From NCBI GenBank assembly GCA_035697465.1, contig DASSCW010000189.1:1-28737 (forward strand): a stretch of 28,737 bases of DNA, read 5' to 3'. Below the pieces are notes generated by a model that was not told the origin of the DNA, made no database searches, and saw nothing but the letters and a program-made list of their open reading frames with translations. The stretch comes from Candidatus Limnocylindria bacterium (GTDB lineage: Bacteria; Chloroflexota; Limnocylindria; QHBO01). Both the position numbers and the translations under genes were made by a program. Shown piece after piece: positions 1-15,728 of this stretch (position 1 is its first letter; each line of letters begins with the position of its first letter).

Positions 1-2
1 GG

Positions 3-557
3 TTCGATGGCTACTCGACCGGCATCCGGCAGAAGTTCGCGATCGCCCGCGGCATGCTGACGGAACCGAGCGTGCTGTTCCTCGATGAGCCGACACGCGC
101 GCTGGATCCCATCGCGGCCGACGAGCTGCGGCGGCACGTCGCCGAACACATCGTCGGGGACCTCGGGCGTACCGTGGTGCTTGCGACACACACCCTCACC
201 GAAGCTGAGGCGATCTGCGACCGAGTCGCGATCATCAGGCGTGGCCGCATGGTCGAGATCGGAACCATGGATGAGCTTCGCCATCGCATCGGACTATCCA
301 CTGTCCTTGAACTGACGGTCAGCGGTGAGTTAGCACCCATCCGGAACGCAATCGGCCGGGTCAACGGCGTTGCCTCCGTGTCCGACGCCGTGGACGACGA
401 CGCATCGACCCAGCTGATCGTCAGCCTCTCCGACGTGGAAGGGGCGACGGACCAGGTGATCCGTGTTGTGCACGCGGCAGGCAGCGTCATCCAGGCGATC
501 ACCACCCGCCGGCCGACCCTCGACGACATCTACCGCGCCGCGCACGCTGAAGGTTGA
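3..557 (+). CDS. ABC transporter ATP-binding subunit, 5'-truncated by the window edge; probable exporter of the lasso cluster
   Basis: Open frame from nt 3: FDGYSTGIRQKFAIARGML (signature-like), Walker B VLFLDEP, H-loop ATHTLTEAEAICDRV. Followed directly by an ABC-2 permease. Confidence 0.9.
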   Translation, partial: FDGYSTGIRQKFAIARGMLTEPSVLFLDEPTRALDPIAADELRRHVAEHIVGDLGRTVVLATHTLTEAEAICDRVAIIRRGRMVEIGTMDELRHRIGLSTVLELTVSGELAPIRNAIGRVNGVASVSDAVDDDASTQLIVSLSDVEGATDQVIRVVHAAGSVIQAITTRRPTLDDIYRAAHAEG

Positions 558-558
558 G

Positions 559-1380
559 GTGCAGTTGATGGAAGGGTGGCCGCGTGTCCTGGGGGCAACG
601 TTCCTGCGGGACATGTGGACGGCGACCAGCTACCGCGCGGGGTTCATCCTCTCCATCGGCGGATCGCTGGCGAGCATCCTGAGCGTCTTTTTCATCGGCC
701 AGGCCTTCGGAGCCTCGGTCAGCCCGTCCTTGGACCAATATGGCGGCAGCTATTTCGCGTTTGCGGTCGTCGGCGTCGCCTTCTCCGGCTTGCTGGGGCT
801 GGGACTATCGGGAATCAGCTCGCGGATTCGCGAGGGCCAGATGATGGGGACGCTGGAGCTGATGCTGTTGAGCCCAAATCGGCTGTTGGTGCTGCTCATC
901 GGCGCATCGCTGTGGAGCCACGCCATGGCCATCTTCTCGCTCGTCATCTACCTGCTGGTTGGCCTTGCTTTGGGCCTGGACCTCGGGCAGGCGAATGTGC
1001 CGATGATGCTGCTGTCCCTGGCAGTCTCGGTCATCGCCTTCAACGGGCTGGGGCTCCTCGCGGCCAGCGTGGTGATCGTGATCAAGCAGGGGAATCCGGT
1101 CAGCCTCATCGTCGGCATGGCGTCCGTCCTCCTGGCAGGAGTCTTCTATCCGGTCAGCGTCCTGCCAGGGTGGCTGCAGGTCCTCGCGCAACTGCTGCCC
1201 CTGACCCATGCGCTGGAGCTGGTCCGCCGATCGGCACTTACCGGCGAGGGCATCGAAACCTTGTCCGGGCACCTGCTGGCACTGGTCGCACTGAGCGTCA
1301 TTCTGGTGCCACTCGGGCTGTGGGCATGCCATCGCGCGGTGACGTTCGCCCAGACCGACGGCTCGCTCTCGCAATACTGA
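559..1380 (+). CDS. ABC-2 type transporter permease (about 273 aa)
   Basis: About six hydrophobic segments; REGQMMGTLELMLLSP and LAGVFYPVSVLPGWLQVLAQLLPLTHAL are typical ABC-2 permease motifs. Start GTG559 or ATG568, just after the ATPase stop. The track start at 463 overlaps the ATPase. Confidence 0.88.
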   Translation: MQLMEGWPRVLGATFLRDMWTATSYRAGFILSIGGSLASILSVFFIGQAFGASVSPSLDQYGGSYFAFAVVGVAFSGLLGLGLSGISSRIREGQMMGTLELMLLSPNRLLVLLIGASLWSHAMAIFSLVIYLLVGLALGLDLGQANVPMMLLSLAVSVIAFNGLGLLAASVVIVIKQGNPVSLIVGMASVLLAGVFYPVSVLPGWLQVLAQLLPLTHALELVRRSALTGEGIETLSGHLLALVALSVILVPLGLWACHRAVTFAQTDGSLSQY

Positions 1381-1390
1381 GAAGAGGACA

Positions 1391-2332
1391 ATGGACGGAG
1401 GCGAGGGCGGGGTGCCGCAGCCAACGCTTGGCAGCTGCGCCGGATACGAGGTCCGCTCGTCGAACGTAGGATTCCGCACGCTCAGGTCGGGTGGCGGCGA
1501 GCCGATGCTGGTCCATGGCGGCGACGATCCGCAGATCGGCGGGGAGGTAGTCGCCACCTGGCGCCCGCGTCCGGGCAACCCATTCCATGGCCGCCTCCTG
1601 CAGGATGGGGGCATCTTCCACTTCTGGGCAAGCGACGTCGGCTGGTACACCATCGATGCGCAGCACCGCACGATCACCATCTCGGGGGACGTCGACATGC
1701 TGCAGACGGAGCTGCGGCTCTTCGGGATCCCCGCCGCAATCTGCGCTTTCGAGTCTGGCGATGCGCCGCTCCACGCCTCGGCAATCGAAATCGACGGGCA
1801 GGCGATCATCCTGGCCGGCCCGAGCAGGCAGGGGAAAACGACGCTGGCGGCGGCCTTCGCCGCGCACGGGCATCGCCTGCTGTCCGAGGACACGACCCGC
1901 TGCGTCCCTGGCCGGGTCCCATCGGCTTTCCCAGGGCCAGCCGTCGTGCGACTGCGCTCCGACGTTGCCGGCTTGCTCGACATTCCGACGGCCACGGCAC
2001 TGCCGACGAGCTTCGAGGACGGACGGACGGCGTTCCTGTTCGACGATGCTTCGCGTGGCTCGGGTGCCGCTCTGCCCTTGCGCGCGATCCTTATGCTGCG
2101 GCCCGGCGAGGGTCCGCCGACCTTGCGGTCAGTGGACTCGGCGCGGGCGGCGCGGGATCTCTTCTCGCTGGCGTTCCGGTTGCCGACCGACGCGTCCCGC
2201 GCGGCGTGTTTCGCCCGCGTGGTGGACCTCGCCGGTCGCGTCGAGGTCATGGACCTGCATCGACCCATCACCATCGATTCGCTGCCGAGCGTCATTTCGC
2301 TCGTCGAGCGGCATCTGGAGGGCGGGGCCTAG
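1391..2332 (+). CDS. HPr-kinase-like P-loop kinase (PadeK-type lasso peptide kinase candidate)
   Basis: LHASAIEIDGQAIILAGPSRQGKTTLAAAFAAHGHRLLSED: His, Walker A and an acidic pair as in HPrK-like kinases. GAGGA RBS before ATG1391. Lies inside a lasso cluster. Confidence 0.82.
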   Translation: MDGGEGGVPQPTLGSCAGYEVRSSNVGFRTLRSGGGEPMLVHGGDDPQIGGEVVATWRPRPGNPFHGRLLQDGGIFHFWASDVGWYTIDAQHRTITISGDVDMLQTELRLFGIPAAICAFESGDAPLHASAIEIDGQAIILAGPSRQGKTTLAAAFAAHGHRLLSEDTTRCVPGRVPSAFPGPAVVRLRSDVAGLLDIPTATALPTSFEDGRTAFLFDDASRGSGAALPLRAILMLRPGEGPPTLRSVDSARAARDLFSLAFRLPTDASRAACFARVVDLAGRVEVMDLHRPITIDSLPSVISLVERHLEGGA

Positions 2333-3649
2333 GTGCCCGAGATCGCCTCGGTGATCGCCACTCTCGCCGACATTGGCGTCGAGCCGCTTGTCCTGAGCGG
2401 CCAGCGTCCGGAAGACGCCGAATCGGCTAAGCAGGAACGTGGGATCCAGCTTTTGATCCGCCGGGCCGATGTGCGTGCCGCGACGGCTGTGCTGGAGCCG
2501 CAGCCATGGCGCTACTCGTGGATTCGGCGGGGGCTGATGCGACTGGTGCCGATGGTGGACTACTGGTGGGACGGCGGCGCCTTTATCGAAGCGTACTGGG
2601 GGCTCCCCGCCGCCCCACTGCCGCCGATCGCGCTGGCACGGCTGGCGACCGCGCTGTGGAGCCGCGCCGAGAAGGACCCCGTCGGCTACTGGCGGCCGGA
2701 TGTGGCGAGCCTGGCCGTTCACTACGCCGTGCAGGCCTGTCGGCCCGGTCGCGGGCACGATGCCGATTGGCGCCACTTCGTCAACCTCAGGTCGCAGCTT
2801 GCCGACCTGTCCGCGGCGAGCGCCATCGCTCGCCAGGCCGGAGTGGCATCCGCATTTCGGCGGGCAGTGGCTGCGGCCGATGCCGGCTCGGGGCCGCCGC
2901 CGCGGGGACCAGTCTTCGACGGCCCGCTGGGAATCGCGTGGTGGTGTACGACGGCGGTGCAGGCACGCCTCCGTCCTCGGCGGCTGGCACGCATCCTCGC
3001 CGGCGTGCCCTCGCTCGGCGACGCGCCGATTCGCTGCCGGGTGGCGGGCACCGAGGTCGTCGCGGACACCGGGGTCTTCGTGCCTACCCCGGACGCCGAG
3101 ATCTTCGTGGACATGGTCCGCAAGCGCGTCGCTGGATTGCCGCGACCGAGGATTGTCGAGGTCGGCACCGGCTGTGGGGCGATTGCCCTGGCCATTGCCA
3201 ATGCCAGGCGCGACGGGGTGGTCCATGCCGCCGAGATCGACGTCGGCGCGGTCCGCTGCGCGCAACGGAACGCGGAGCGGCTCGGGCTGCACGACGTCGT
3301 CGTTTCGCGCGGGTCGCTGCTCGAACCGGTCTCGAGCGAGCTGGTCGGAGGCGTGGACGTCGTGATCGCGAACCTGCCCTTCTATCCGGCGCGCAATTTC
3401 GCATCGATCGGATCCGTTCCGCGCGACACCATCCAGGGGCCAGGGGACGACGGTCTCGACCTCGTTCGGCAGCTGGCAGCCGACGCCCGACGGTACCTGC
3501 GTCCGGATGGATGGCTGATCCTGCAGATGTTCGCGTGGCAGGTCGAGCTGTTGACCGATGAGCTGAAGCGAATGGGTTACGTGCCGGGCAATCCGCGGTT
3601 GTCTGGGCCATTCGCAATCTGGCCGATGGACTATCGCCCGGGTGCCTGA
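2333..3649 (+). CDS. Fusion protein 1: degenerate nucleotidyltransferase-like N-terminal domain plus HemK/PrmC-like SAM-dependent methyltransferase
   Basis: C-half has VFVPTPDAE, IVEVGTGCGAIALA (motif I), AAEID (motif II) and IANLPFYP (NPPY-like). N-half has GVEPLVLSG, GIQLLI, IEAYWGLP and SLAVHYAVQ, echoing the NTP_transf_5 pattern. Starts immediately after the kinase stop. Confidence 0.78.
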   Translation: MPEIASVIATLADIGVEPLVLSGQRPEDAESAKQERGIQLLIRRADVRAATAVLEPQPWRYSWIRRGLMRLVPMVDYWWDGGAFIEAYWGLPAAPLPPIALARLATALWSRAEKDPVGYWRPDVASLAVHYAVQACRPGRGHDADWRHFVNLRSQLADLSAASAIARQAGVASAFRRAVAAADAGSGPPPRGPVFDGPLGIAWWCTTAVQARLRPRRLARILAGVPSLGDAPIRCRVAGTEVVADTGVFVPTPDAEIFVDMVRKRVAGLPRPRIVEVGTGCGAIALAIANARRDGVVHAAEIDVGAVRCAQRNAERLGLHDVVVSRGSLLEPVSSELVGGVDVVIANLPFYPARNFASIGSVPRDTIQGPGDDGLDLVRQLAADARRYLRPDGWLILQMFAWQVELLTDELKRMGYVPGNPRLSGPFAIWPMDYRPGA

Positions 3650-3678
3650 TCGCGGCCGCCCAGCGCACCGCTCTGGCG

Positions 3679-4125
3679 GTGCCAATCGACATGAGGCACT
3701 ATTCGGCCGTGCTCACGCGATCCGACGACGGCCTCTCACTGCTCGCCAAGCTCAGCCTGCTCTGGCGCGTCTGGGCTGTCGCCGCACGGGTGCGGCTTGA
3801 GCTGTGGCGCCATCCGCTGCCTGAGGTCGTCTCTGTCCTCGCCGCGCCAACCGGTCGCCCGCGTGTCCCCACCTCGCTGCTCAGCCGGGCAGTGTCGCGC
3901 GGACTGCGGATCGGTCCGCTCCAACCGCGCTGCCTCACGCGCAGCCTGGTCCTCTATCGCCTGCTGCGCGCGCAGGGCGACGATGCGCAGCTGATCATCG
4001 GCATGCGCGACAAGACGGTCTCCACCGACGCGCACGCGTGGGTCGAGCTGGCCGGCCGCGACGTCGGACCGCTACCGGGTGGGAAAGGCTACCGCGAGCT
4101 GAGCCGGTATCCACGCAGCCTTTGA
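3679..4125 (+). CDS. Lasso peptide B2 protein (transglutaminase-like leader peptidase)
   Basis: CLTRSLVLYRLLRAQG...IIG...AHAWVE (catalytic Cys and His, Transglut_core3-like). Start GTG3679 or ATG3691. Confidence 0.88.
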   Translation: MPIDMRHYSAVLTRSDDGLSLLAKLSLLWRVWAVAARVRLELWRHPLPEVVSVLAAPTGRPRVPTSLLSRAVSRGLRIGPLQPRCLTRSLVLYRLLRAQGDDAQLIIGMRDKTVSTDAHAWVELAGRDVGPLPGGKGYRELSRYPRSL

Positions 4126-5450
4126 CTGAAGATTCGGCGGACTCGTCCTCGTCCGACGTCACCTCACTCATTCGCGTCCTGCGCGACGTCGGCGTTGACG
4201 CCCTGGTCCTGCGGTCCGGCGCCATCAACGACGCCGGCGTATTTCGCCCGCTCCAGCTCCTCGTACCGGAATCCGGGCGAAGAGACGCCGTCGCAGCACT
4301 GGATCGCATGGCCTGGCGCTACGCGTGGGTACGCACGGGACTGCTGCGGCTCACGCCCGGAGCCGTCTACGCCTGGGATGGGGGACGCGTCGTCGAGCTG
4401 TACTGGAGCCTGCCCGCCGCGCCGTTACCGGCATCGGCCCTGGCCCGCCTGACCGCTGCGCTCCGCCGGAGCGCACGGCGAGGGCCGGATGGCTACCTGC
4501 TGGCGGATCCGTCCGCCTTGTTGGTGCACCTCGCCGTCCAGTCGTGCCGGCCCGGCCGCGCGCGCGCGGGCGATTGGGCAGACTTCTTGAGTGCGGCCGC
4601 GACCAGTGAGGACAAGCACCAGGTACGCAAGCTCGCGCGAGGGGCGGGCGTGCGGCCGGCGCTCGATCGCGCCCTGGCTGCGGCGGCTGCCGGGCGTCAG
4701 CGGCCCGGGCCGGGCCGTACCTACGGCGCGGGCTGGGACGTCGCGCGCCTTGTCGCAAATGCGATGCAGGCGCTGGCGCCACGCTCGGTCGCCCGCCAAC
4801 TGGCGGGCTCGCCGATCTTCGGCGACAGCCCCATCCGTTGCAGAATCGGCGGAGTCGAGGTCGTCGCCGATCCGGGCGTCTTCGTGCCGGCGCCATCAGG
4901 GGAGCTGTTCCTCGACGAGGCCCTCGCCGCGTTGGGCAGCATCAGCGAGCCACTGGTGGTCGAGGCAGGAACCGGTTGCGGCGCCATGGCCCTGGCAGTC
5001 GCCAAGGCACGGCCCGATGCCACCCTGCACGCCACCGAGCTGTCGCGCGCGGCGGTGCGTTCGGCGCGCCGCAACGCGTCACGGCTCGGCGAGCTCCGGG
5101 TGAAGTTCTATGAAGGGTCACTATTGACGCCACTGCCGAGCTCGCTCGGTGGGCGGGTGGACCTCCTCATGGCCAACCTCCCCTATGTGCCCGAGGGGGA
5201 GGGCTTCACCCTTGGGGCGTTGCCGCCTTCGACCCTGACCGGCGTGGAAGAGGACGGGCTCGGCCTCCAGCGCCAACTCGCCCGATCGGCGATCGGCGTC
5301 ATCCGGCCGGGTGGCAGGCTTCAGCTCCAGATGCTGGCCTGGCAATGGTCACGCCTCTCGCCGGAGCTCGCGGCCCTCGGCTATCGACCCCTGGCCCCAC
5401 GGCTCTCCGATGCTTTCGCCATCTGCCAGGCAGAGCTGATCGCGGGCTGA
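4122..5450 (+). CDS. Fusion protein 2: paralog of 2333-3649 (degenerate nucleotidyltransferase-like domain plus HemK-like methyltransferase), about 442 aa
   Basis: VFVPAPSGE, VVEAGTGCGAMALA, ATELS, MANLPYVP; N-half GVDALVLRSG, PLQLLV, VELYWSLP, LLVHLAVQ. Colinear with fusion 1. TTG4122 overlaps the B2 stop (TTGA) and aligns with the paralog start; the track gives 4038. Confidence 0.78.
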   Translation: MTEDSADSSSSDVTSLIRVLRDVGVDALVLRSGAINDAGVFRPLQLLVPESGRRDAVAALDRMAWRYAWVRTGLLRLTPGAVYAWDGGRVVELYWSLPAAPLPASALARLTAALRRSARRGPDGYLLADPSALLVHLAVQSCRPGRARAGDWADFLSAAATSEDKHQVRKLARGAGVRPALDRALAAAAAGRQRPGPGRTYGAGWDVARLVANAMQALAPRSVARQLAGSPIFGDSPIRCRIGGVEVVADPGVFVPAPSGELFLDEALAALGSISEPLVVEAGTGCGAMALAVAKARPDATLHATELSRAAVRSARRNASRLGELRVKFYEGSLLTPLPSSLGGRVDLLMANLPYVPEGEGFTLGALPPSTLTGVEEDGLGLQRQLARSAIGVIRPGGRLQLQMLAWQWSRLSPELAALGYRPLAPRLSDAFAICQAELIAG

Positions 5451-5470
5451 CCGCAGGGGCAACGAGGAGA

Positions 5471-5764
5471 TCAGGCGGCGACGTGAATCAGATCGCGCTG
5501 CACCGCGCTCTCCACGAAGCGCCGCACGTCGGCCTCGAGTTCCGGTGGGCCATCGGCTATGAGCGCGCGCACAGCAGCCACGAGGTCTTCCAGGGTCCGA
5601 TCCTTATCCAGCAGGACCCAGATCGCGAATCCCAGCTGGTTGAGCTTGTGATACGCACCCGTGTCGAGATGGAGGAGCACCCCGCCGCCGGCGTCGGACA
5701 GCTCACGCGCGACGACCTGGGGATTGCGTGTCAGGGTCGATTCAGGTTCCACCGTCGGCTCCAT
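5471..5764 (-). CDS. PqqD-family RiPP recognition element (lasso B1)
   Basis: RNPQVVAREL...GVLLHLDTGAYHKLNQLGFAIWVLLD...TLEDLV...DVRRFVESAVQRDLI is a typical PqqD/RRE pattern. ATG5764 overlaps the cyclase stop (TGATG); alternative GTG5770. Confidence 0.9.
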   Translation of the reverse strand: MEPTVEPESTLTRNPQVVARELSDAGGGVLLHLDTGAYHKLNQLGFAIWVLLDKDRTLEDLVAAVRALIADGPPELEADVRRFVESAVQRDLIHVAA

Positions 5765-7557
5765 CACCACTGTGCCAGGAAGGCCTGGGCCACCGCCAGG
5801 TTACGTGCCCATCGGTAATCCAGGGTCGTGAAACGCTCCGACTCGAGCAGCGTCGCAAGGCGCCCGTAGTCGACGCCACCCAGGCGATGCTTCGGCGCGC
5901 CCAGCAGGCGACGGAGGGCAGCGTAGTCGACCTCGGCCATGTGGGCTTCGTCGAAGACAGTCTTATCCCGGCGGTCCAGGATCTCGTCCGGAACGCGGCC
6001 TCGGAGCAGGTCGCGCACCAGACCCTTTGGCCGGAGGTCCGGGAACTTCTGCTCGGCGGGGATCGAGAGGAAGAATTCCCACAGGTCCACGTCCGTCCAG
6101 GGCTTTCGCGATACCACGCCCGACACGTCCTGGCAGACCTCCTCCGCCTCGAGCGAGATTCCGGGACCGATGAAGCCCACCAGTTGGGATCGTCGCCACC
6201 GGTCGCGGACGCGGGGGACGTCGGTGTCCGCCGCCCGCCGGCGGTCGATCCAGTCGGGAACCACCGCCGGCCTGGTCCGAGCTCCGATCGAATTGCGGGC
6301 CGCCATCACCCGATGGGGCATGAGTGAGCGGATCACGAGGCGGGTCAGCGCCCACCACGTCCAACCCCGCGTGCGGCGCTCCGCCAGCTCGCGCCTGGCC
6401 GGAGACCATCGGCCGCGCAGCAGGTAATGCTCAAGGGTGTACCACTGCATTGCGGCGACGAATTCCGCGTGCTCACCGGTGAGCACCCGCCGCGCGCCGA
6501 GATTGCGCGCGTGGACATAGCTCTCCTCGTACTGCGCCAACGCCGCTCCGGGCCACGGCGTGTCGGCGAGGCCCACCCACCGCTCGATGTCGTCGAGCGC
6601 GTTGGCGGACAGCTCATAGGTGTGCAGAGGTATCGAGAAGGCCCTGGCCAGGATCTCCACGTATCGGCTCTCGTCGACAGACGGGTACCGCGGATAGACG
6701 GCCGAGATCGCCTGCAACTCACGTCCCGCCATCGCCCGGTGTCGGGGCGCCGCGAACGCCGCGATCGCCGGGGAGTCGATGCCACCGCTGAGGGAGATGG
6801 CGTCGCGACCGGTCAGGACGCGACTGACCGCCTGATCCATGAGCCGGGTAAAGTGCTCGGCGATCTCCGCCTGCCGATAAGTGGCAGATTCCAGCAGCGC
6901 CTCCGGCTGCCAGTAACGTGACAGCGTGGTCGCGCCCTCCTCGGAACGGACGGTCGTCGACTTCGGCAGGCGGCGGACGCCCACCAGCGACGCCGGCATC
7001 TCGTCGTCGACGTCTCGGTAGAAGATGCGCTCCACGACGTCCAGGTCCGGCTGCCGCGGGAGGGATGCCCCCGCGACTACCTGCTTTGCCTCGCTGGCCG
7101 CCATGAATCCGCTGGCGTCCTCGCGGAAGAACAGTGGGCGGTAGCCGATGTGATCGCGGAAGCACAAGACGGAACGCCCGTCGCTGATGCCTGCAGCGAA
7201 GACACCCCGCATGCGGGCCGGCAGCTCCGCGCCGAAGCGGTGGAATCCCGCCGCCAGGAGCTTGGCGATATCGATGGAGCCGCCGGCCGCTGCGTGCCCT
7301 GAGCCGTCCGGCCATAGATCGCGCGCGAGATCGACCGCGTTGTCGAGGGAGCCTGTGAAGGCGACCGCAAGACCATCGTGGACACCGACCCAGGCATCTG
7401 GCTCCGCGTGGTTCCCCGTCCTCGCCGCCATGGCGCAGCGTCCGAGGACGAGCGTCTGCACCTCCGTGCCGCGGTGCGGAGCGGCATCGATCATCCGCGT
7501 CGCGACGACACCGGGGTCATCATGGAGCGCTGACAGGAAGACTGCGATTGCGCCCAC
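5764..7557 (-). CDS. Lasso peptide cyclase (asparagine synthetase-like isopeptide-forming C protein), 597 aa
   Basis: MRGVFA..., RDHIGYRPLF, ATP-binding SLSGGIDSPAIA, SRKPWTD. The N-terminus MGAIA lacks the AsnB Cys nucleophile (MCGI). Flanked by the precursor and the RRE. Confidence 0.9.
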   Translation of the reverse strand: MGAIAVFLSALHDDPGVVATRMIDAAPHRGTEVQTLVLGRCAMAARTGNHAEPDAWVGVHDGLAVAFTGSLDNAVDLARDLWPDGSGHAAAGGSIDIAKLLAAGFHRFGAELPARMRGVFAAGISDGRSVLCFRDHIGYRPLFFREDASGFMAASEAKQVVAGASLPRQPDLDVVERIFYRDVDDEMPASLVGVRRLPKSTTVRSEEGATTLSRYWQPEALLESATYRQAEIAEHFTRLMDQAVSRVLTGRDAISLSGGIDSPAIAAFAAPRHRAMAGRELQAISAVYPRYPSVDESRYVEILARAFSIPLHTYELSANALDDIERWVGLADTPWPGAALAQYEESYVHARNLGARRVLTGEHAEFVAAMQWYTLEHYLLRGRWSPARRELAERRTRGWTWWALTRLVIRSLMPHRVMAARNSIGARTRPAVVPDWIDRRRAADTDVPRVRDRWRRSQLVGFIGPGISLEAEEVCQDVSGVVSRKPWTDVDLWEFFLSIPAEQKFPDLRPKGLVRDLLRGRVPDEILDRRDKTVFDEAHMAEVDYAALRRLLGAPKHRLGGVDYGRLATLLESERFTTLDYRWARNLAVAQAFLAQW

Positions 7558-7585
7558 GGCAGCCTCTCCCCAGCGCTGGATAGCA

Positions 7586-7613
7586 AATGACCGGGCCCGA
7601 AGGCCCGGTCATT
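7586..7613 (-). terminator. 12-bp perfect hairpin with UUCG tetraloop between precursor and cyclase (attenuator or stabiliser)
   Basis: - strand AATGACCGGGCC-TTCG-GGCCCGGTCATT, 19 nt after the precursor stop; only a short U-run follows. Confidence 0.75.
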
Positions 7614-7632
7614 GATTATGCCAAGTGAGGGG

Positions 7633-7779
7633 TCAGCTCGCGAACGGGTGCGAGAACTCCCCGTACTTGTCGGTTTCCATCACGATTTCAGACTTGTCGC
7701 CCTTGCCGGGATTGTCGAACGTGTGATCGGCGATGGACCCCAAGTCCTCGATCTCCGGCGCCTGGTAGATGATCTGCAT
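7633..7779 (-). CDS. Lasso peptide precursor, 48 aa: leader MQIIYQAPEIEDLGSIADHTF, predicted core DNPGKGDKSEIVMETDKYGEFSHPFAS
   Basis: Translated by hand (below the ORF-track cutoff). AAGGGGAG RBS 6 nt upstream; YxxP leader motif; Gly then Thr at -2; Asp7/Glu10 acceptor candidates; C-terminal Ser. Sits directly upstream of the cyclase. Confidence 0.88.
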   Translation of the reverse strand: MQIIYQAPEIEDLGSIADHTFDNPGKGDKSEIVMETDKYGEFSHPFAS

Positions 7780-7820
7780 CCCAAACTCCCCTTGTATTTG
7801 GCGGCATAGGCAAGCGCCAG

Positions 7821-7836
7821 TAGGTCAAAAGTACTA
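7821..7836. promoter_or_regulatory. Operator-like 16-mer, copy 1 (TAGGTCA-AA-AGTACTA)
   Basis: Shares the AGTACTA arm and TAG start with copies at 7992 and 9875; overlaps the precursor -10. Confidence 0.5.
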
Positions 7837-7856
7837 TGTCCCGCGGACCGCGTCAA
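7828..7856 (-). promoter_or_regulatory. Sigma70-type promoter for the precursor-cyclase-RRE operon
   Basis: - strand TTGACG (7856-7851), N17, TACTTT (7833-7828). Implies a 5' UTR of about 40 nt. Confidence 0.6.
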
Positions 7857-7981
7857 CGCAATCTGCGCACACTGTTGCCTCAGGGCAACGCCGAACTGAT
7901 GCCTGGATTAACTCCCGACAGCCAGCCCGCGTCCCCGGTGCACCAAGGCAACGGCACTGCCGCTGGCAGTCTGAAAATCGC

Positions 7982-8011
7982 TTGACTGTATTAGTACTCA
8001 AGTACTAGGTT
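7982..8011 (+). promoter_or_regulatory. Promoter TTGACT-N18-TAGGTT containing a perfect 7-2-7 palindrome (TAGTACT-CA-AGTACTA, 7992-8007)
   Basis: Same hexamers and spacing as the promoter at 9865-9894; upstream of the secreted-protein gene at 8357. Confidence 0.6.
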
Positions 8012-8356
8012 CTCGCTCCACCGGGGGACCCGAGCTGCCCTCGCTTCCGGCCAACCGCATATTCGTGCCCGAGCCCCGCGTAGTTGGCCGCCGCGCCGTC
8101 TGCCCAGACGCTGCGCTCTCGTCCGCGTTGCCCTCATCTCTTCTTCTTCGGGCTGCGCGGGATCTCGATCCCACCTAGCCCGATCAGGGAGGGAGGGTTG
8201 TGTGCGCGCCATGGGGGCGAGCACTAGGTGCGAGCAGTGCTCACAGCGCAACGAGGAGGCGAACCGAGAAGGAAGAAACGACCGAGACGGAGCTTCGGGG
8301 ACACCCAATGACGGACCGTGGTGTTTCCCACCCTCTACTAAGGAGCGATAGAACCC

Positions 8357-9553
8357 ATGACTCTTCGAGCGAACGCGCCACGGGCCAAGCGCCGCTGGAC
8401 GGCGCTGTTGGCGGCAGTTTCACTGCTTATCGGCCTAACGACGACCACTGTGCTGGCAGCACCTCCGGGCATCAGCCTCGAGCAGTGCCGCAACGGTTCA
8501 GCAGCCAGCCCCAATGACTGTGAGGACCTCGGTGGGTCGGCAGGATGGGTCAACGGTAACGTTGGCGCATCGCAGGGCCACCTCCTGGAAGGTTATTCGA
8601 TTCCTTATCGCGCCCTGATGAACAACCTGCCAGCGAACACCAACATCACCGTCACACTTGGCTATGACATCACCCACAGTGGTGCGCATGCCATCGACTA
8701 TCTGACCCACTACGACCGGCTTGAGCCGCATGGCTTCTTTGGCCACGGCGACGCCGAGGATGTCTTTCCGGTATCGGGCACCAGCGTTAGCGCGACCCCC
8801 TTCGCGACTCTTGCAATTCCGGAGCCGTCGAATCTATCGGCCGACGCCAGCGCCGGATGGGCCAATATTCCTGCGGAACAGAAGGTCATCACACTCTTCG
8901 GTGGCACCTTCCCGGCGAGCCAGCCTACGTTCTATGTCACCGAGGGCGACATCAACGCCTCGCAGTCGGAGGCTCGTGTTCAGTTCACGTTCCTGACTGA
9001 CAGCGACGGAGGTTCCGCTGTCCTGGCCTGGGGTGGACATATCGCCCGCGGCGATCATTGGGACGGCGATTCGGCCTCTGCGATCAGTGGCTCTCCGTAC
9101 CACATGCGTTTGAAGGCTTGGACTCTCGGCAACGTGGGTAACCAGGACCGCTCGCTGTCGGCAGGAGCTGTCCAGGTCGAGACCTCGACGACCACCACCC
9201 AGCCATCAGCCCAACTTACCTTCAGCGTTGCACTCAACGATCGCGCAGATGTTTCTGCCGGTGGTGGGACGGTTGAGTTCAACCTGTGGAGCACCAAGAG
9301 CGCGGATACTCCTCCGGTCTGCTCGGGGTTGCTGTACACCGAGACCGTCGCCCTTAGTGGCGGATCGGCAACGACGACTGGGACCGGATCGTTCGGCAGC
9401 AACGTTGTCGCACCGACTAGTGCAACAACGTACTACTGGACGGCGGACTACTCGGGCGACGACACGACAGAACCTTCGTCATCGCCTTGTGGCGCGGAGT
9501 CTGTCACCGTCACGCCTCCGACCATTGGACTGGTGCCTGCCCCGGCGCCCTAG
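8357..9553 (+). CDS. Secreted protein (398 aa) with a Sec signal peptide and a C-terminal Ig-like beta domain
   Basis: AAGGAG RBS; basic N-terminus, hydrophobic stretch, ...TVLA|APP; LEQCRNG...C disulfide pair; Ser/Thr/Gly-rich beta character; C-terminal TVEFNLW...C...YYWTADYSGD...PCG. Ends before a hairpin terminator. Confidence 0.75.
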   Translation: MTLRANAPRAKRRWTALLAAVSLLIGLTTTTVLAAPPGISLEQCRNGSAASPNDCEDLGGSAGWVNGNVGASQGHLLEGYSIPYRALMNNLPANTNITVTLGYDITHSGAHAIDYLTHYDRLEPHGFFGHGDAEDVFPVSGTSVSATPFATLAIPEPSNLSADASAGWANIPAEQKVITLFGGTFPASQPTFYVTEGDINASQSEARVQFTFLTDSDGGSAVLAWGGHIARGDHWDGDSASAISGSPYHMRLKAWTLGNVGNQDRSLSAGAVQVETSTTTTQPSAQLTFSVALNDRADVSAGGGTVEFNLWSTKSADTPPVCSGLLYTETVALSGGSATTTGTGSFGSNVVAPTSATTYYWTADYSGDDTTEPSSSPCGAESVTVTPPTIGLVPAPAP

Positions 9554-9582
9554 TTCCGCGGCCGCACAAACTTGGACCCGAT

Positions 9583-9610
9583 GAGGGCCGGCCCGCAAGG
9601 GTCGGCCCTC
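9583..9610 (+). terminator. Intrinsic terminator-like hairpin
   Basis: GAGGGCCGGCCC-GCAA-GGGTCGGCCCTC (GNRA loop, one G-U pair) followed by GTTCTATTT, 30 nt after the 9553 stop. Confidence 0.7.
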
Positions 9611-9623
9611 GTTCTATTTGCTT

Positions 9624-9800
9624 GCGGACTTTCATCTCCCTGGCCACCGAGCGTGTCGCGGACTTCCACGCCCAGGGCTGCGAGTTCGTCGCGTAGCCGG
9701 TCTGCCGTCGCGAAGTCTCCGGCCGCCCGCGCCGATGCACGGTCTGCCAACACGAGGCGGCTTCCTCAGGCAGGGTCGGTGATCTCGACCTCCGGAGCGT
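9624..9800 (-). pseudogene. cysS: Frameshifted relic of the cysS 3' end (second copy)
   Basis: Aligns with 12386-12564 in the same orientation. LADRASARAAGDFATADRLRDELAALGVEVRDT vs LAERASARAARDFATSDQLRDNLAALGVEVRDT (28/33 identical). Three single-base frameshifts relative to cysS; no 5' portion. Confidence 0.85.
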
Positions 9801-9864
9801 GTTGATCTGTGTCAACACTTCAACTGCACCAAGTCCCAGCTGGGAGCGGAAGTCGGCTCTGGTA

Positions 9865-9894
9865 TTGACTCGTGTAGTTCGAAAGTACTAGGTT
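9865..9894 (+). promoter_or_regulatory. Promoter TTGACT-N18-TAGGTT with operator-like copy 3 (TAGTTCG-AA-AGTACTA, 9875-9890)
   Basis: Near-twin of 7982-8011; directly upstream of the LuxR-type regulator gene. Confidence 0.6.
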
Positions 9895-9964
9895 GCCCGG
9901 ACCGAGCACCTCCGCTGCCCATCCTCGGCTCGCGTTGCCAACCTCAACCCTGGGGGACGAGGCC

Positions 9965-10834
9965 TTGATCCGCACCGGGCTGGGACAGCGAACCGCTGGA
10001 AGCCTACGAAACGCCATCGATAGCCGCTGGGCACGGCTGGTGGCCGATATCGCCCCTCAGTTCCTCGCGTTGGCCGCCGCGGCGACGATCTACGCGTTCG
10101 GACCTCCTGTTGACGCGCAGCGCGATGTGTGGGTGTGGGCAGTGCTCGCGGTCGCCTTCGCGGGACTGCGCCTGGGCACTCTGCGCACCGCCCTGGTCAC
10201 CTCAACGTATGTCCTGGACGCGGTCGGCGTGGCGATCTTCATCGGTGGCACTGGCGACGCGGAATCGCCATTCCTCGGCATCGCCCTGGCGGGGGCCTGG
10301 TGGGCGTCACAGAAGGCCGCCCGCGGTACGCTGTACGCCATCGCCTTCGCCGCTTCCTACAGCATCCTGGTGGCTCCGGCGGCGCTGCGCGAGGGACACC
10401 TCGCGGCCGTCATCTTCCAGCCCACCCTCCTCTGCATCGTCGGACTGCTGGCAGATAGCCTGCGCGCGCGCGGCGATCTGTCGCGATGGGCCTTCACCAT
10501 CCTCACCCATGAAGGGGAGAGCCAACCGGCGTCCGTCAGGGTCGGGCTGAGCCGCGTGGTCCGCGGTGGGTCGGTTCCCATCGACGTCCTGCTGACGGCC
10601 GGCCAGTTGGGCCTGACCGCGGCCCAGACGGAGCTCGTTGCGTACCTCATCCTCGGCTTGTCGAACATGCAGATTGCCGAGGCGCTCAGCCTCAGTGAGG
10701 CGACGGTGCGCTATCGGCTTACTCGGCTGTACCGCGTCCTTGGCGTGCGCGGACGAAAGGCAGCAGCGGAACGAGCCCGCGAGCTGGGCCTCGGTGATCT
10801 CGTGGGGTCCGGAGGCGGGCCAGCCGCTGTATAG
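9965..10834 (+). CDS. Membrane-anchored LuxR/GerE-family HTH transcriptional regulator
   Basis: About five TM segments, including IGGTGDAESPFLGI, then LTAAQTELVAYLILGLSNMQIAEALSLSEATVRYRLTRLYRVLGV (GerE HTH). Start uncertain: track TTG9893 overlaps the predicted -10; TTG9965 has an upstream GGGGACGAGG. Confidence 0.8.
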   Translation: MIRTGLGQRTAGSLRNAIDSRWARLVADIAPQFLALAAAATIYAFGPPVDAQRDVWVWAVLAVAFAGLRLGTLRTALVTSTYVLDAVGVAIFIGGTGDAESPFLGIALAGAWWASQKAARGTLYAIAFAASYSILVAPAALREGHLAAVIFQPTLLCIVGLLADSLRARGDLSRWAFTILTHEGESQPASVRVGLSRVVRGGSVPIDVLLTAGQLGLTAAQTELVAYLILGLSNMQIAEALSLSEATVRYRLTRLYRVLGVRGRKAAAERARELGLGDLVGSGGGPAAV

Positions 10835-10846
10835 GTCCGGGAGACC

Positions 10847-10908
10847 GCACCAGAACGTACCGATTCGCACTTTTCTAGCGGACTTGAGTATCGAGTGAGC
10901 CGTAGGAT
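10847..10908 (+). promoter_or_regulatory. Conserved promoter block, copy A
   Basis: GCACCA...ATTCGCACTTTTCTAGCGGAC (21 nt exact, 10863-10883) with TAGGAT 40 nt after the start of the 21-mer; identical layout at 11688-11749. Confidence 0.65.
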
Positions 10909-11064
10909 CGTCGTCCGGCACCATCGATTCCCGATGGAGATTCGCAACTCGGGGGAAGTCGACGCTCGCGGGTATTCCGCCCGCCCCGCTGCCCGCTCGT
11001 GGTCAGCCCGTCGGCGCGACGACCGCCTTGCTAACCGGAATCGGATAGTAGGAGGATCGTGCCC

Positions 11065-11589
11065 GTGATTCGGAAATCAGGTATTGCCTTGGCCGTCCTG
11101 ACGGCTCTCGTCGTCTTGGTCGGTGGCGCCTTTGGGGCCGTCAACCCCAAGGGCGGGCTCCCGACGGCGACCTTCAGTGGAGCCACTGTCACCGTGCAGG
11201 GCGGGGACTTCAGCGGGTTGGGGAATATTCCCGCGTTCGCCACGCTCACGGTCAATGGAATCGCGACGTACTTCTGCGAGAACCCGCAGGGTCACCAGGC
11301 ACCGGGTCAGAACCCGGTGGATGCGCAGACGGGGGTTTCGGATCCCACCCCGCTGACGACGAGTAAGAACGGCCGATCCACGATCCCGCCGCTCAGCGAG
11401 AGCGTGTCGGCTCCGACCACCCCTACAGCGCAACAGGTTGGGTGTGGAGGAAAGGGCAGCACGCAGTGGAGCGTCGTTCTCGATGAGCTGATCGCCACGT
11501 CCGCCAACGTCACGATCACTCACGATGGAGATGTCATCTTCTGCCGCAACTACGTGCTCGGCGGATCGTCGACGGGCACCGCCTGCTAA
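11065..11589 (+). CDS. Small secreted beta-rich protein, paralog A (about 174 aa)
   Basis: GGAGGATCGTG context; MIRKSGIALAVL... signal peptide; GDFSGLGN, YFCENPQG, four Cys. Track start 11059; 11065 gives better RBS spacing. Confidence 0.75.
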   Translation: MIRKSGIALAVLTALVVLVGGAFGAVNPKGGLPTATFSGATVTVQGGDFSGLGNIPAFATLTVNGIATYFCENPQGHQAPGQNPVDAQTGVSDPTPLTTSKNGRSTIPPLSESVSAPTTPTAQQVGCGGKGSTQWSVVLDELIATSANVTITHDGDVIFCRNYVLGGSSTGTAC

Positions 11590-11625
11590 GGTCGAGGTGA
11601 GCCCTCGATAAGAGGCTCAGTCCGC

Positions 11626-11658
11626 GAAACAGGGGCACCAACCGGTGCCCCTTGTTTC
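11626..11658 (+). terminator. Intrinsic terminator-like hairpin
   Basis: GAAACAGGGGCACC-AACC-GGTGCCCC(T)TGTTTC downstream of the 11589 stop. Confidence 0.7.
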
Positions 11659-11687
11659 CATACCCGCGTATCCCGGACGCCTCGACT

Positions 11688-11749
11688 GCACCAAACCGCT
11701 CTTATTCGCACTTTTCTAGCGGACGACGAGCGTGGCGCGAGCCTAGATT
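11688..11749 (+). promoter_or_regulatory. Conserved promoter block, copy B
   Basis: GCACCA...ATTCGCACTTTTCTAGCGGAC (11704-11724) with TAGATT at the same +40 offset (11744-11749). Confidence 0.65.
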
Positions 11750-11897
11750 CTTCCTCCATTTCGCGTGCATGGGCACGCGCGGAATCGGCCAGTAGGGAAG
11801 GTCGAAACGCACCAGCCAGGCTTCTCGGCTGCCCAGCCAGCGGCGATGGCAGATTGCGGCCAAGCCCTATCGCGGCCTCGTACGGAGGATCGTGTTC

Positions 11898-12317
11898 ATG
11901 TTGCGCAAGAGTGGAATTGGCATCGCGGTAGTTCTTGGGCTGGTGCTGACGGTCGCGGCGGTTACGGCCACCTCGAACGCGCACTTTGTCGGGACGCCGC
12001 AGCTCACGGTATCGGGGAACACCGTCACCGCCAGCGGCAAGGTGGCTGGGCTCGGCCAGGTGAACGAGATCCATGTCAGCGTCACAGGCGATGCCGCATG
12101 CATCAACCCGGGCAGCAAGAAGCCCCAGGCGGCCAACAAGGAGAGCTTCGCCGCGGGCGGCAACTTCCCGGTCCAGAACGGCAAGGCCCTCTTCAGCGTC
12201 CGGCTGACGGCGACCTTCCAACCGAACTGCACGCCGCCAATGAGCGTGCAGTGGTCGAACCTGGTCATCACGGTGACCGCAGTGCCTGACGACGGGACCT
12301 TCCTGCAGTTCCCCTGA
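11898..12317 (+). CDS. Small secreted beta-rich protein, paralog B (about 139 aa)
   Basis: GGAGGATCGTG context; MLRKSGIGIAVVL... signal peptide; GKVAGLGQ, ACINPGS, second Cys in PNCTPP. Track start 11892. Confidence 0.75.
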   Translation: MLRKSGIGIAVVLGLVLTVAAVTATSNAHFVGTPQLTVSGNTVTASGKVAGLGQVNEIHVSVTGDAACINPGSKKPQAANKESFAAGGNFPVQNGKALFSVRLTATFQPNCTPPMSVQWSNLVITVTAVPDDGTFLQFP

Positions 12318-12341
12318 TCGACCGGTGCCCAACGGCCGATG

Positions 12342-12372
12342 ACGAGGAGGGTGGCATCGCCGCCCTCCTCGT
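12342..12372. terminator. Probable bidirectional terminator hairpin between paralog B and cysS
   Basis: ACGAGGAGGGTGGC-ATC-GCCGCCCTCCTCGT, 14-bp stem with one G-U pair, between convergent stops. Confidence 0.75.
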
Positions 12373-12379
12373 TTCACGC

Positions 12380-13780
12380 CTAGCGGCGGACGGTCGTCTC
12401 CTGGCCGTCAGGCGTGTCGCGCACCTCCACTCCCAAGGCGGCCAGGTTGTCGCGGAGCTGGTCGGACGTGGCGAAGTCACGGGCCGCGCGCGCGGAGGCG
12501 CGCTCGGCGAGCATTGCGGCGGCTCCTTCCGGCAGCTCGGTGATCTCCTCCTCGGCGGGAGCGTCAAGGCTCAGTCCCAGCACCCGGTCGAAGTCGAGCA
12601 GCAGGGCGCGCCGCTGGGCGGCGCCGAGGTCATCGGCACCTGCCACGGCATGGGCGATTGCCAGCGCGGCGGGGATGCCCAGGTCCTCGCTGATGGCATC
12701 GGTGAACCGCGCCCGGTAGCCCGCCATCGGCTCAGCCGAGAGGTCGACCGCGGATGCATCGGCTTTATCGGCCTCAGCGGCAGCCCGTCGCAGGCGCCGC
12801 AGCCCGGAGGTTGCGGCAGACATGGCGTCGTGGGTGAAGTCCAGCTTGGACCGATAGTGGGCGGTCAGCGCCAGGTACCGGAAGGCGAGTGGCTCGAATC
12901 CGAAGTCGGGCAGCTCGTTGACTCGGATGACGTTTCCCGCCGACTTGGCCATCTTGGCATCGGCCAGGGTCAGGAACTCGCCGTGCATCCAGACGTTCAC
13001 GACGGGATGCCCGGTCACGCCTTCCGACTGCGCGATCTCGTCCTCGTGGTGCGGGAACTTCAGGTCGATGCCGCCGGTGTGGATGTCGAACCGATCGCCA
13101 AGGAACTTCATCGACATCGCCGAGCACTCGATGTGCCAGCCGGGAAAGCCGTCGCCCCAGGGTGACGGCCACTTCATGAGCCGGCCAGGCTCGGCCGCCT
13201 TCCACAGGGCGAAGTCCTCCGGATCGCGCTTGTCGGTCTCGACGTCGACGCGGTGCCCGGCCCGCATCTGGTCCAGCCTCTGCCCGGACAGCTGGCCGTA
13301 GCCCGGGAACTCGCTGACGTCGTAGTAGACGTTGCCGTCGACCTCGTAGGCAAGGCCGCGCTCCAGGAGCGTCGAGGTCATCTCGAGCATCTCCGGGATG
13401 TGGTCGGTGGCCTTGGGCATCACGTCGGCGAGCGGCATGTTCAGCAGTCGCTCGTCCTCCAGCCATGCCTCGGTGTAGAACTCGGCGATCTCGGCCGGAG
13501 GCTTCCGCTCCGCCTCGGCCGCCTCGAGCATGCGGTCCTCGCCGGTCTCGCGCATGTGGCCGACATCGGTGATGTTCTTGACGTACAGCACCTCGTAGCC
13601 GAGGTATTGCAGCGTGCGGCGCAGCAGGTCGCCGAACAGGTATGTCCGCAGGTTGCCGATGTGCGCGTAGCGGTAGACCGTGCTGCCGCAGGTGTAGATG
13701 GTCACGCGCCCGGGCGCGATCGGCTCGAGCGGTTCGACCTTGCGGGTCAGCGAGTTGTAGAGGCGCAGGGTGGGGAGCAT
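12380..13780 (-). CDS. cysS: Cysteine--tRNA ligase (466 aa)
   Basis: LRLYNSLTRK, YTCGSTVY, HIGN, NITDVGH, DFALWK, PGWHIECSAMS, DIHTGGIDLKFPHHEDEIAQ, KMAKS. Confidence 0.97.
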   Translation of the reverse strand: MLPTLRLYNSLTRKVEPLEPIAPGRVTIYTCGSTVYRYAHIGNLRTYLFGDLLRRTLQYLGYEVLYVKNITDVGHMRETGEDRMLEAAEAERKPPAEIAEFYTEAWLEDERLLNMPLADVMPKATDHIPEMLEMTSTLLERGLAYEVDGNVYYDVSEFPGYGQLSGQRLDQMRAGHRVDVETDKRDPEDFALWKAAEPGRLMKWPSPWGDGFPGWHIECSAMSMKFLGDRFDIHTGGIDLKFPHHEDEIAQSEGVTGHPVVNVWMHGEFLTLADAKMAKSAGNVIRVNELPDFGFEPLAFRYLALTAHYRSKLDFTHDAMSAATSGLRRLRRAAAEADKADASAVDLSAEPMAGYRARFTDAISEDLGIPAALAIAHAVAGADDLGAAQRRALLLDFDRVLGLSLDAPAEEEITELPEGAAAMLAERASARAARDFATSDQLRDNLAALGVEVRDTPDGQETTVRR

Positions 13781-15628: not shown

Positions 15629-15728
15629 GGTGCCTCCGTTGGGTGATACCGTCGGTTGCGGACTGCCGGCGCTGCGCAGCGGGCACGCGGCCGGCACATT
15701 GTGCCATCCGGCCATCTACCATCGCCGC

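Follow-up and report, generated by a model that had tools for sequence, protein, structure and literature searches.

We analyzed a 28,737-nucleotide stretch of DNA (contig DASSCW010000189.1; here, the window) from an uncultured bacterium of the Chloroflexota and found at its left end a lasso peptide biosynthetic cluster that is real and intact-looking and that is new through two N-methyltransferase fusions (MT1 and MT2) and an Asp-started, strongly conserved core. The basic phosphate-tagging lasso type is known; the methyltransferase fusion is the new part. We regard it as quite probable that this is a kinase-type (paeninodin/pseudomycoidin-like) lasso cluster with extra N-methylation, and its likely product is a 27-residue lasso peptide with an Asp1-Asp7 ring, phosphorylated on Ser and N-methylated. 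A phosphorylated plus methylated lasso peptide had been proposed in an earlier sequence-only reading of this DNA and is still the best inference. More tentatively, and with a confidence that falls somewhat short of even, we propose that MT1 and MT2 are the first lasso side-chain N-methyltransferases, acting on a Lys or Asn amide nitrogen of the phosphorylated Asp1-Asp7 lasso, and that their inactivated nucleotidyltransferase domain is a new docking module for peptides that ribosomes synthesize and that are modified after translation (RiPPs), used beside or instead of the PqqD-type RiPP precursor recognition element (RRE).

The case for N-methylation begins with the C-terminal halves of MT1 and MT2, which match the PrmC/HemK profiles with E values of 1e-27 to 1e-29. 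Their TIGR03534 scores (102 and 94 bits) are about half the cutoff of 199, and the N-terminal half of the fusions is NTP_transf_5-like in place of the N-terminal domain of PrmC, so that neither is a PrmC proper. Both copies retain the S-adenosylmethionine (SAM)-binding GxGxG motif and motif IV, in the forms VE(V/A)GTGCGA and ANLP(F/Y), with G283, G285, G287, P354, and P357 invariant. An AlphaFold2 model of MT2 (mean predicted local distance difference test [pLDDT] score, 92.6) has PrmC/HemK (2b3t and 1nv8), KMT9/N6AMT1, and PrmA as its top matches in the Protein Data Bank (PDB); these are N-methyltransferases of protein Gln or Lys. The N-terminal domain of MT2 was unified with the NTP_transf_5 domains of sister clusters by hhalign (96.5%; E = 7e-10). 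The DLDLLV motif of true NTP_transf_5 proteins has become LQLLV and IQLLI in the window copies, with loss of the DxD metal site. Since the matching D134A/D136A mutant of PsmN, the NTP_transf_5-type enzyme of pseudomycoidin biosynthesis, is inactive (PMC6993621), we predict that the N-terminal domain has no transferase activity and infer that it serves as a docking module.

To place the fusions in context, we compared related loci (numbered with the prefix L) from a same-genus genome, NCBI metagenome-assembled genomes (MAGs), and JGI, ENA, and Logan contigs. The handles L013, L019/L026, and L017 stand for the same-genus genome locus (G011:C4), JAICUY010000001.1, and ERZ25039586 contig_5126, respectively; one unpublished genome (G017) underlies none of our claims. 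At 90% identity, homologs of the full-length fusion form at least 67 clusters, and these homologs lie among lasso genes on every contig long enough to show neighbors. The commonest gene order is ATPase, permease, kinase, B2, NTP_transf_5, and fusion, convergent with B1-C-A. Clusters with two fusions recur: L105 has the order MT-B2-MT-B1-C-A, as in the window, and Cys-containing clusters of the Gaiellaceae type have two in tandem. Such a fusion is absent from the lasso literature that we found; the tailoring set, called unusual in the sequence-only reading, is not confined to the window, as the fusion homologs and the recurring two-copy clusters show. Over the whole of their length, MT1 and MT2 share 47% identity. 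Maximum-likelihood analysis places MT2 in a well-supported clade together with the fusions of L015, L018, L019, L021, L023, and L101, whereas MT1 groups with those of L104 and L105 (support, 94/95). As they belong to different subclades, the two are old paralogs by this phylogeny; MT1 as a recent tandem copy of MT2 is ruled out by the tree.

Our best guess for the methyl acceptor is Lys8 of the core (K29 of the precursor), because, unlike Lys5 and Asn2, it does not vary among the 53 precursors that were aligned. A search for core residues that covary with the presence of the fusion found none, and a GKGDK Lys pair, present in 5/5 two-MT clusters with a known core, is uninformative, being found in most one-MT clusters too.

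The components that define a lasso cluster are all present: a precursor with the leader motif, B1, B2, a cyclase lacking the first Cys (Cys1), and an Asp/Glu acceptor. No core or tailoring gene seen here is disrupted. The sequence-only reading had recognized the A/B1/B2/C/D lasso machinery, with a PqqD RRE, a B2 protease, an HPrK-like kinase, two methyltransferase fusions, and an ABC exporter; Pfam and NCBIfam scans support each of these, and the three profiles that it had named for checking (PF13471, PF05402, and PF00733) match B2, B1, and the cyclase with the scores given in Table 1. The cyclase begins MGAIAVF, with Gly in place of the nucleophilic Cys of AsnB; the lack of Cys1 had been noted in that reading. 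Of 16 loci of the family, most likewise have Gly at this position (G-A/S), the reading of the cyclase in L016, L019, and L119 having had no clear start. A sequence search of the PDB with the cyclase recovered only 7ylz, a hydroxyamidotransferase (1.4e-9), and matched none of the Escherichia coli AsnB chains at E values of ≤1e-3; against TIGR01536 it scores 127, with a cutoff of 267. By sequence, the cyclase lacks both Cys1 and close similarity to glutamine-dependent AsnB. The start of B1 overlaps the stop of the cyclase gene.

The precursor gene lies directly ahead of the cyclase gene (7779-7633, minus strand) and encodes the leader MQIIYQAPEIEDLGSIADHTF followed by the core DNPGKGDKSEIVMETDKYGEFSHPFAS. 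Its ribosome binding site (RBS), YxxP leader motif, and Thr at −2, all previously described, can be read directly from the sequence; the full leader motif is YxxPxIx3Gx5TF, with Y5, P8, I10, G14, and T20-F21. The precursor had also been described as unannotated, which is true of the open reading frame (ORF) track used for that description, but it is already present as a called gene in a public protein collection. A search of 5.8 billion proteins recovered 60 clusters of precursor homologs (46 to 82 aa; 59 to 88% identity), and in the 53 that were aligned, P8, G14, T20, P24, G25, K29, D37, E41, S43, H44, and P45 are invariant. All related loci that include this flank have a homolog directly upstream of the cyclase gene, so the lasso assignment survives the refutation that a lack of conservation would have brought. 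In close loci, the precursor is more conserved (63 to 88%) than the cyclase (54 to 66%), and the family comprises at least 70 distinct cores. A sister precursor group (L020, L028, L113-L115, L119, and L122) has the same leader and a two-Cys core (DTPG.GDKG.CG.DPM..EPSC...), which suggests a disulfide-bearing variant; its clusters often have two tandem fusions, which arose by a separate duplication of their own.

Cleavage after Thr20-Phe21 would release a core starting D1-N-P-G-K-G-D7, in which Asp1-Asp7 is likely to form a canonical 7-residue ring. Within the window core, a 7-residue ring is possible only as Asp1-Asp7 or Gly4-Glu10, and only the former has Thr at −2. Counts from related sequences, which are suggestive only, agree with this assignment: an Asp/Glu acceptor lies at positions 7 to 9 from the Thr-Phe site in 58/70 distinct family cores, and the remaining 12 all have, three residues farther on, a Thr-Pro/Gly site with an Asp/Glu at position 7 or 8 counted from its Gly; the Thr of this second site is present in only 4 of the 58. 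Cores of the QTPGKGTKSSD type (L013, L018, L021, L023, L101, L112, and L034) lack Asp7 and have Thr-Pro before Gly4 and an Asp at 8 from that Gly. The point at which the leader is cleaved may have moved by three residues within a single family of precursors.

Phosphorylation is predicted from the kinase and from the end of the core. Without exception, 18 homologs of the kinase keep H128, G148-K149-T150-T151, D167, and D191, and the AlphaFold2 model of the kinase (pLDDT, 91.7) matches the PEPCK and HprK/P folds; a PDB sequence search with the kinase gave no match. The spacing of the catalytic residues is the same as in BsfK, in which H148, K169, and D186/D187 have been shown to matter (PMC10368454). 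The core ends in HPFAS, i.e., with a C-terminal Ser, and Ser is last in 43/70 family cores and penultimate in 24/70. Catalytic motif, modeled fold, and C-terminal Ser together are consistent with a kinase of the paeninodin type. The second enzyme of the pseudomycoidin type, an NTP_transf_5 protein with an intact DxD, was not found in the window, which does not establish its absence from the genome. In L015, the closest relative, whose precursor is 88% identical, there is a single fusion, with a true NTP_transf_5 gene beyond the ATPase; in L013 and L019, too, such a gene adjoins that of the ATPase. The corresponding gene probably lies beyond the contig end here. The earlier description of the cluster as complete therefore holds for A/B1/B2/C but not for the whole, as the gene for the ABC ATPase is truncated by the contig end and no true NTP_transf_5 like that of the relatives was found; its accompanying claim, that the operon runs off the left edge, is upheld, the window being the entire contig. 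The one match to a search for the missing N terminus of the ATPase was a paralog, on contig C355, with 33% identity and no DNA overlap. As a separate observation, L017 encodes an NTP_transf_5 domain fused to GT2 glycosyltransferase domains (7785-9899), together with a 2-oxoglutarate (2OG)-Fe(II) oxygenase. The tailoring set of this lasso family is highly modular.

We propose a pathway in which B1 would bind the YxxPxI leader and the kinase would phosphorylate a Ser on the linear precursor, most likely the C-terminal Ser27, as with PadeK, or alternatively the invariant Ser in FSHP. MT1 and MT2 would dock through the catalytically dead nucleotidyltransferase-like domain, and the HemK-like domain would transfer a methyl group from SAM to a side-chain nitrogen, with Lys8 as the best candidate and Lys5 or Asn2 as alternatives. 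B2 would then cleave after Thr20-Phe21, the cyclase would couple the Asp1 amine to the Asp7 carboxylate to give the 7-residue ring, and the ABC-2 transporter would export the product.

Several observations weigh against this reading. The cyclase scores 128 bits with the narrow NCBIfam model NF033535, below its curated cutoff of 525, and the kinase likewise scores below the Pfam and NCBIfam cutoffs of its closest models. Asp is unusual as the first core residue of lasso peptides, and the precursor core is conserved far above that of most lasso families. The 24/70 cores that end in Ser-Pro or similar, instead of Ser, imply that the phosphorylation site may differ. A search of the source genome for a true NTP_transf_5 (PF14907) recovered just the degenerate domain of MT2 itself, in a MAG that is 57% complete and with a contig that ends within the operon. 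Finally, clusters without the fusion (L013, of the same genus, L016, and L017) keep the same conserved core residues, so that covariation does not reveal the methyl acceptor. This last point also suits an alternative in which the HemK-like fusions act on a cellular target (a translation factor or ribosomal protein), for self-protection or regulation, as do the methylated substrates of the closest folds, PrmC, PrmA, and KMT9, which include translation components and other proteins. We nevertheless think this improbable, and the least favored of the alternatives: the N-terminal domain is paralogous to the peptide-tailoring NTP_transf_5 of the same clusters and stands in for the substrate-binding domain of PrmC itself; all loci have the fusion gene within the biosynthetic operon, where it is flanked by genes for the kinase, B2, and B1; and the N-terminal domain, searched on its own, belongs to a tiny family, which among 1.84 billion representatives comprises 49 clusters at 50% identity, mostly proteins of 410 to 480 aa with the domain N-terminal.

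If the fusions do act on the peptide, the methyl acceptor might be an appendage on the phospho-Ser (e.g., an amino sugar or nucleotide added by the missing NTP_transf_5) that the dead nucleotidyltransferase domain recognizes. Such a role would fit the descent of that domain from an NTP_transf_5 enzyme, the position of the fusion gene directly after a true NTP_transf_5 gene in L018, L021, L022, L023, and L101, and the action of PsmN on phosphorylated Ser (PMC6993621). We hold it to be unlikely, given that L104 has the order kinase-B2-MT-B1-C with no NTP_transf_5 in between, that the source genome, though incomplete, yielded none, and that HemK-type NPPY-like pockets are known for the Gln amide and the Lys amine. 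We give a similarly low probability to a mature product that is branched-cyclic or otherwise atypical instead of a threaded lasso, or that has a ring with a different start. Pseudomycoidin made without the kinase and PsmN is not threaded (PMC6993621), and the Asp start and the 12 cores with an acceptor only from the second site could be read in the same way, but the full B1/B2/C set, the standard leader motif, and the placement of Thr at −2 in the window speak for the Asp1-Asp7 lasso.

Among characterized systems, paeninodin (Paenibacillus dendritiformis; PadeK) and the ThcoK/SyanK systems (reviewed in PMC9266682) have hosts in the Firmicutes or Proteobacteria, in contrast to the Chloroflexota here. 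The paeninodin ring is Ala1-Asp9, whereas Asp is the first residue of the window core and a 7-residue ring is probable; the window further adds two HemK-like methyltransferase fusions, and its core is highly conserved across the family. The pseudomycoidin cluster (psm; Bacillus pseudomycoides) combines a kinase with an NTP_transf_5-type enzyme that acts on phospho-Ser and adds a hexose to the phosphate (PMC6993621). Relatives of the window carry both genes, whereas the window itself has only the degenerate domains, without the DxD pair essential in PsmN, fused to methyltransferases. The Bsf cluster of Bradymonas sediminis (PMC10368454) also has kinase and nucleotidyltransferase genes and the same kinase catalytic spacing, and phosphorylation there is RRE-assisted; however, BsfK phosphorylates core Ser3, the Bsf precursor has Ile at −2, and there is no methyltransferase fusion. 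With PrmC/HemK (TIGR03534; 2B3T and 1NV8) and HemK2/KMT9, their best sequence-profile and structural matches, MT1 and MT2 share the class I SAM fold, GxGxG, and an NPPY-like motif IV (NLPY/NLPF), but the N-terminal helical domain of PrmC is replaced and the genes are embedded in a RiPP operon. SAM-dependent tailoring is otherwise represented in lasso clusters by StspM/LasF (C-terminal O-methyl ester) and PIMT homologs (aspartimide; cellulonodin-2 and lihuanodin), which are O-methyltransferases of unrelated subfamilies that act on carboxylates, whereas the window enzymes are of the amino/amide N-methyltransferase type. Reviews of lasso modifications (PMC9266682; 2022) and of interlocked peptides (PMC13352647; 2026) list phosphorylation (paeninodin), phospho-hexosylation (pseudomycoidin), C-terminal O-methyl esters, and PIMT aspartimides, and no side-chain or HemK-type N-methylation. 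Our literature searches on lasso peptides with HemK, on the core and leader motifs, and on lasso peptides with Limnocylindria found nothing relevant. Lasso peptides are prized as scaffolds, and the range of accessible products grows with every new tailoring enzyme; if our proposal is true, a pseudoenzyme reused as a recognition domain adds to the rules of RiPP substrate recognition.

All family members come from MAGs or metagenomes, and heterologous expression is for this reason the only route to the compound. That so unusually conserved a core is spread over soil Chloroflexota and further uncultured lineages suggests a signaling role or a conserved target. As to the host, CysS (12380-13780) is 85 to 86% identical to proteins labeled Candidatus Limnocylindria, Chloroflexota, which points to an uncultured Candidatus Limnocylindria-like soil bacterium; such Chloroflexota are known only from MAGs and are indeed unmined, as the remark that the lineage looks poorly mined had suggested. 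The ATPase is 54 to 65% identical to those of closer clusters (L013, L015, L018, L019, L021, and L023) and 33 to 46% identical in distant loci. The true start of the permease is probably near the ATPase stop.

Expression of the precursor is served by a conserved promoter that drives A-C-B1, with a hairpin after A. The sequence-only reading had already pointed to a promoter, and the call now rests on conservation across loci in place of a strict consensus scan: the −35 element is largely conserved, and GTAC.TT at −10 is invariant in seven aligned precursor upstream regions, although a strict sigma-70/terminator scan of 5300-8400 flagged neither a promoter nor a terminator at the precursor. The hairpin folds with a minimum free energy of −29.6 kcal/mol (z, −4.2; 0/200 shuffles fold as well), and a similar one lies 3′ of the precursor in L013. 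About 18 nucleotides upstream of the −35 element is a palindrome, a candidate regulator site, whose G.TGC-N6-GCA.C pattern is invariant in 7/7 aligned upstream regions. Separately, the window has a LuxR/GerE gene at 9893-10834, and a GerE response regulator adjoins the cluster in L016.

Table 1. Features of the lasso peptide cluster in the window
Feature	Coordinates	Strand	Evidence or remark
ABC transporter ATPase, C-terminal 184 aa	3..557	+	Pfam ABC_tran, DrrA1-3_C; cut by contig start
ABC-2 type permease	463..1380 (ORF limit)	+	PF01061, 56 bits; syntenic in related loci
HPrK-like peptide kinase (putative)	1391..2332	+	TIGR04352, PF07475, weak matches
MT1, degenerate NTP_transf_5-like domain + HemK/PrmC-like N-methyltransferase	2333..3649	+	TIGR03534, E = 2.7e-29, below cutoff
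B2 leader peptidase, transglutaminase-like Cys protease	3679..4125	+	PF13471, 52.8 bits; NF033537, 54.8 bits; both above cutoff
MT2, second such fusion, 442 aa from TTG 4122	4122..5450	+	TIGR03704, TIGR03534, ~1e-27; ORF open from 4038
B1, PqqD-type RRE	5471..5770	-	PF05402, 56.9 bits, above cutoff; lasso PqqD NCBIfam models match
Lasso cyclase, Asn-synthase-like	5764..7557	-	PF00733, 93 bits
12-bp GC-rich hairpin between precursor and cyclase	7586..7613	-	Partial terminator or attenuator
Precursor A	7633..7779	-	48 aa: 21-aa leader + 27-aa core; 60 homolog clusters
RBS GGGGAG	7786..7791	-	Read from sequence; 6 nt before ATG
Promoter-like TTGACG-17-TACTTT	7828..7856	-	Conserved in 7 related loci
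Palindrome GTTGCC-CTGA-GGCAAC	7874..7889		Candidate regulator site upstream of -35

In the window, L019, and L013, the lasso cluster lies near cysS and a ketosynthase (KS)-KS-acyltransferase (AT) set. The L019/L026 contig, labeled Steroidobacteraceae, carries the lasso cluster with cysS, KS, KS, and AT neighbors whose proteins are 76 to 84% identical to those of the window; its label or binning is probably wrong, and the spread of the cluster over six phylum labels needs caution. In L019, cysS abuts the precursor gene directly (L019:12612-12768), whereas about 4.5 kb separates them in the window (7857-12379), encoding a 398-aa protein without a Pfam match, the LuxR-type regulator, and two further ORFs; this difference fits an insertion beside cysS. 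Farther along, at 13811-15715 on the minus strand, is a major facilitator superfamily (MFS) transporter with a fused C-terminal cyclic-nucleotide-binding domain (PF07690 + PF00027).

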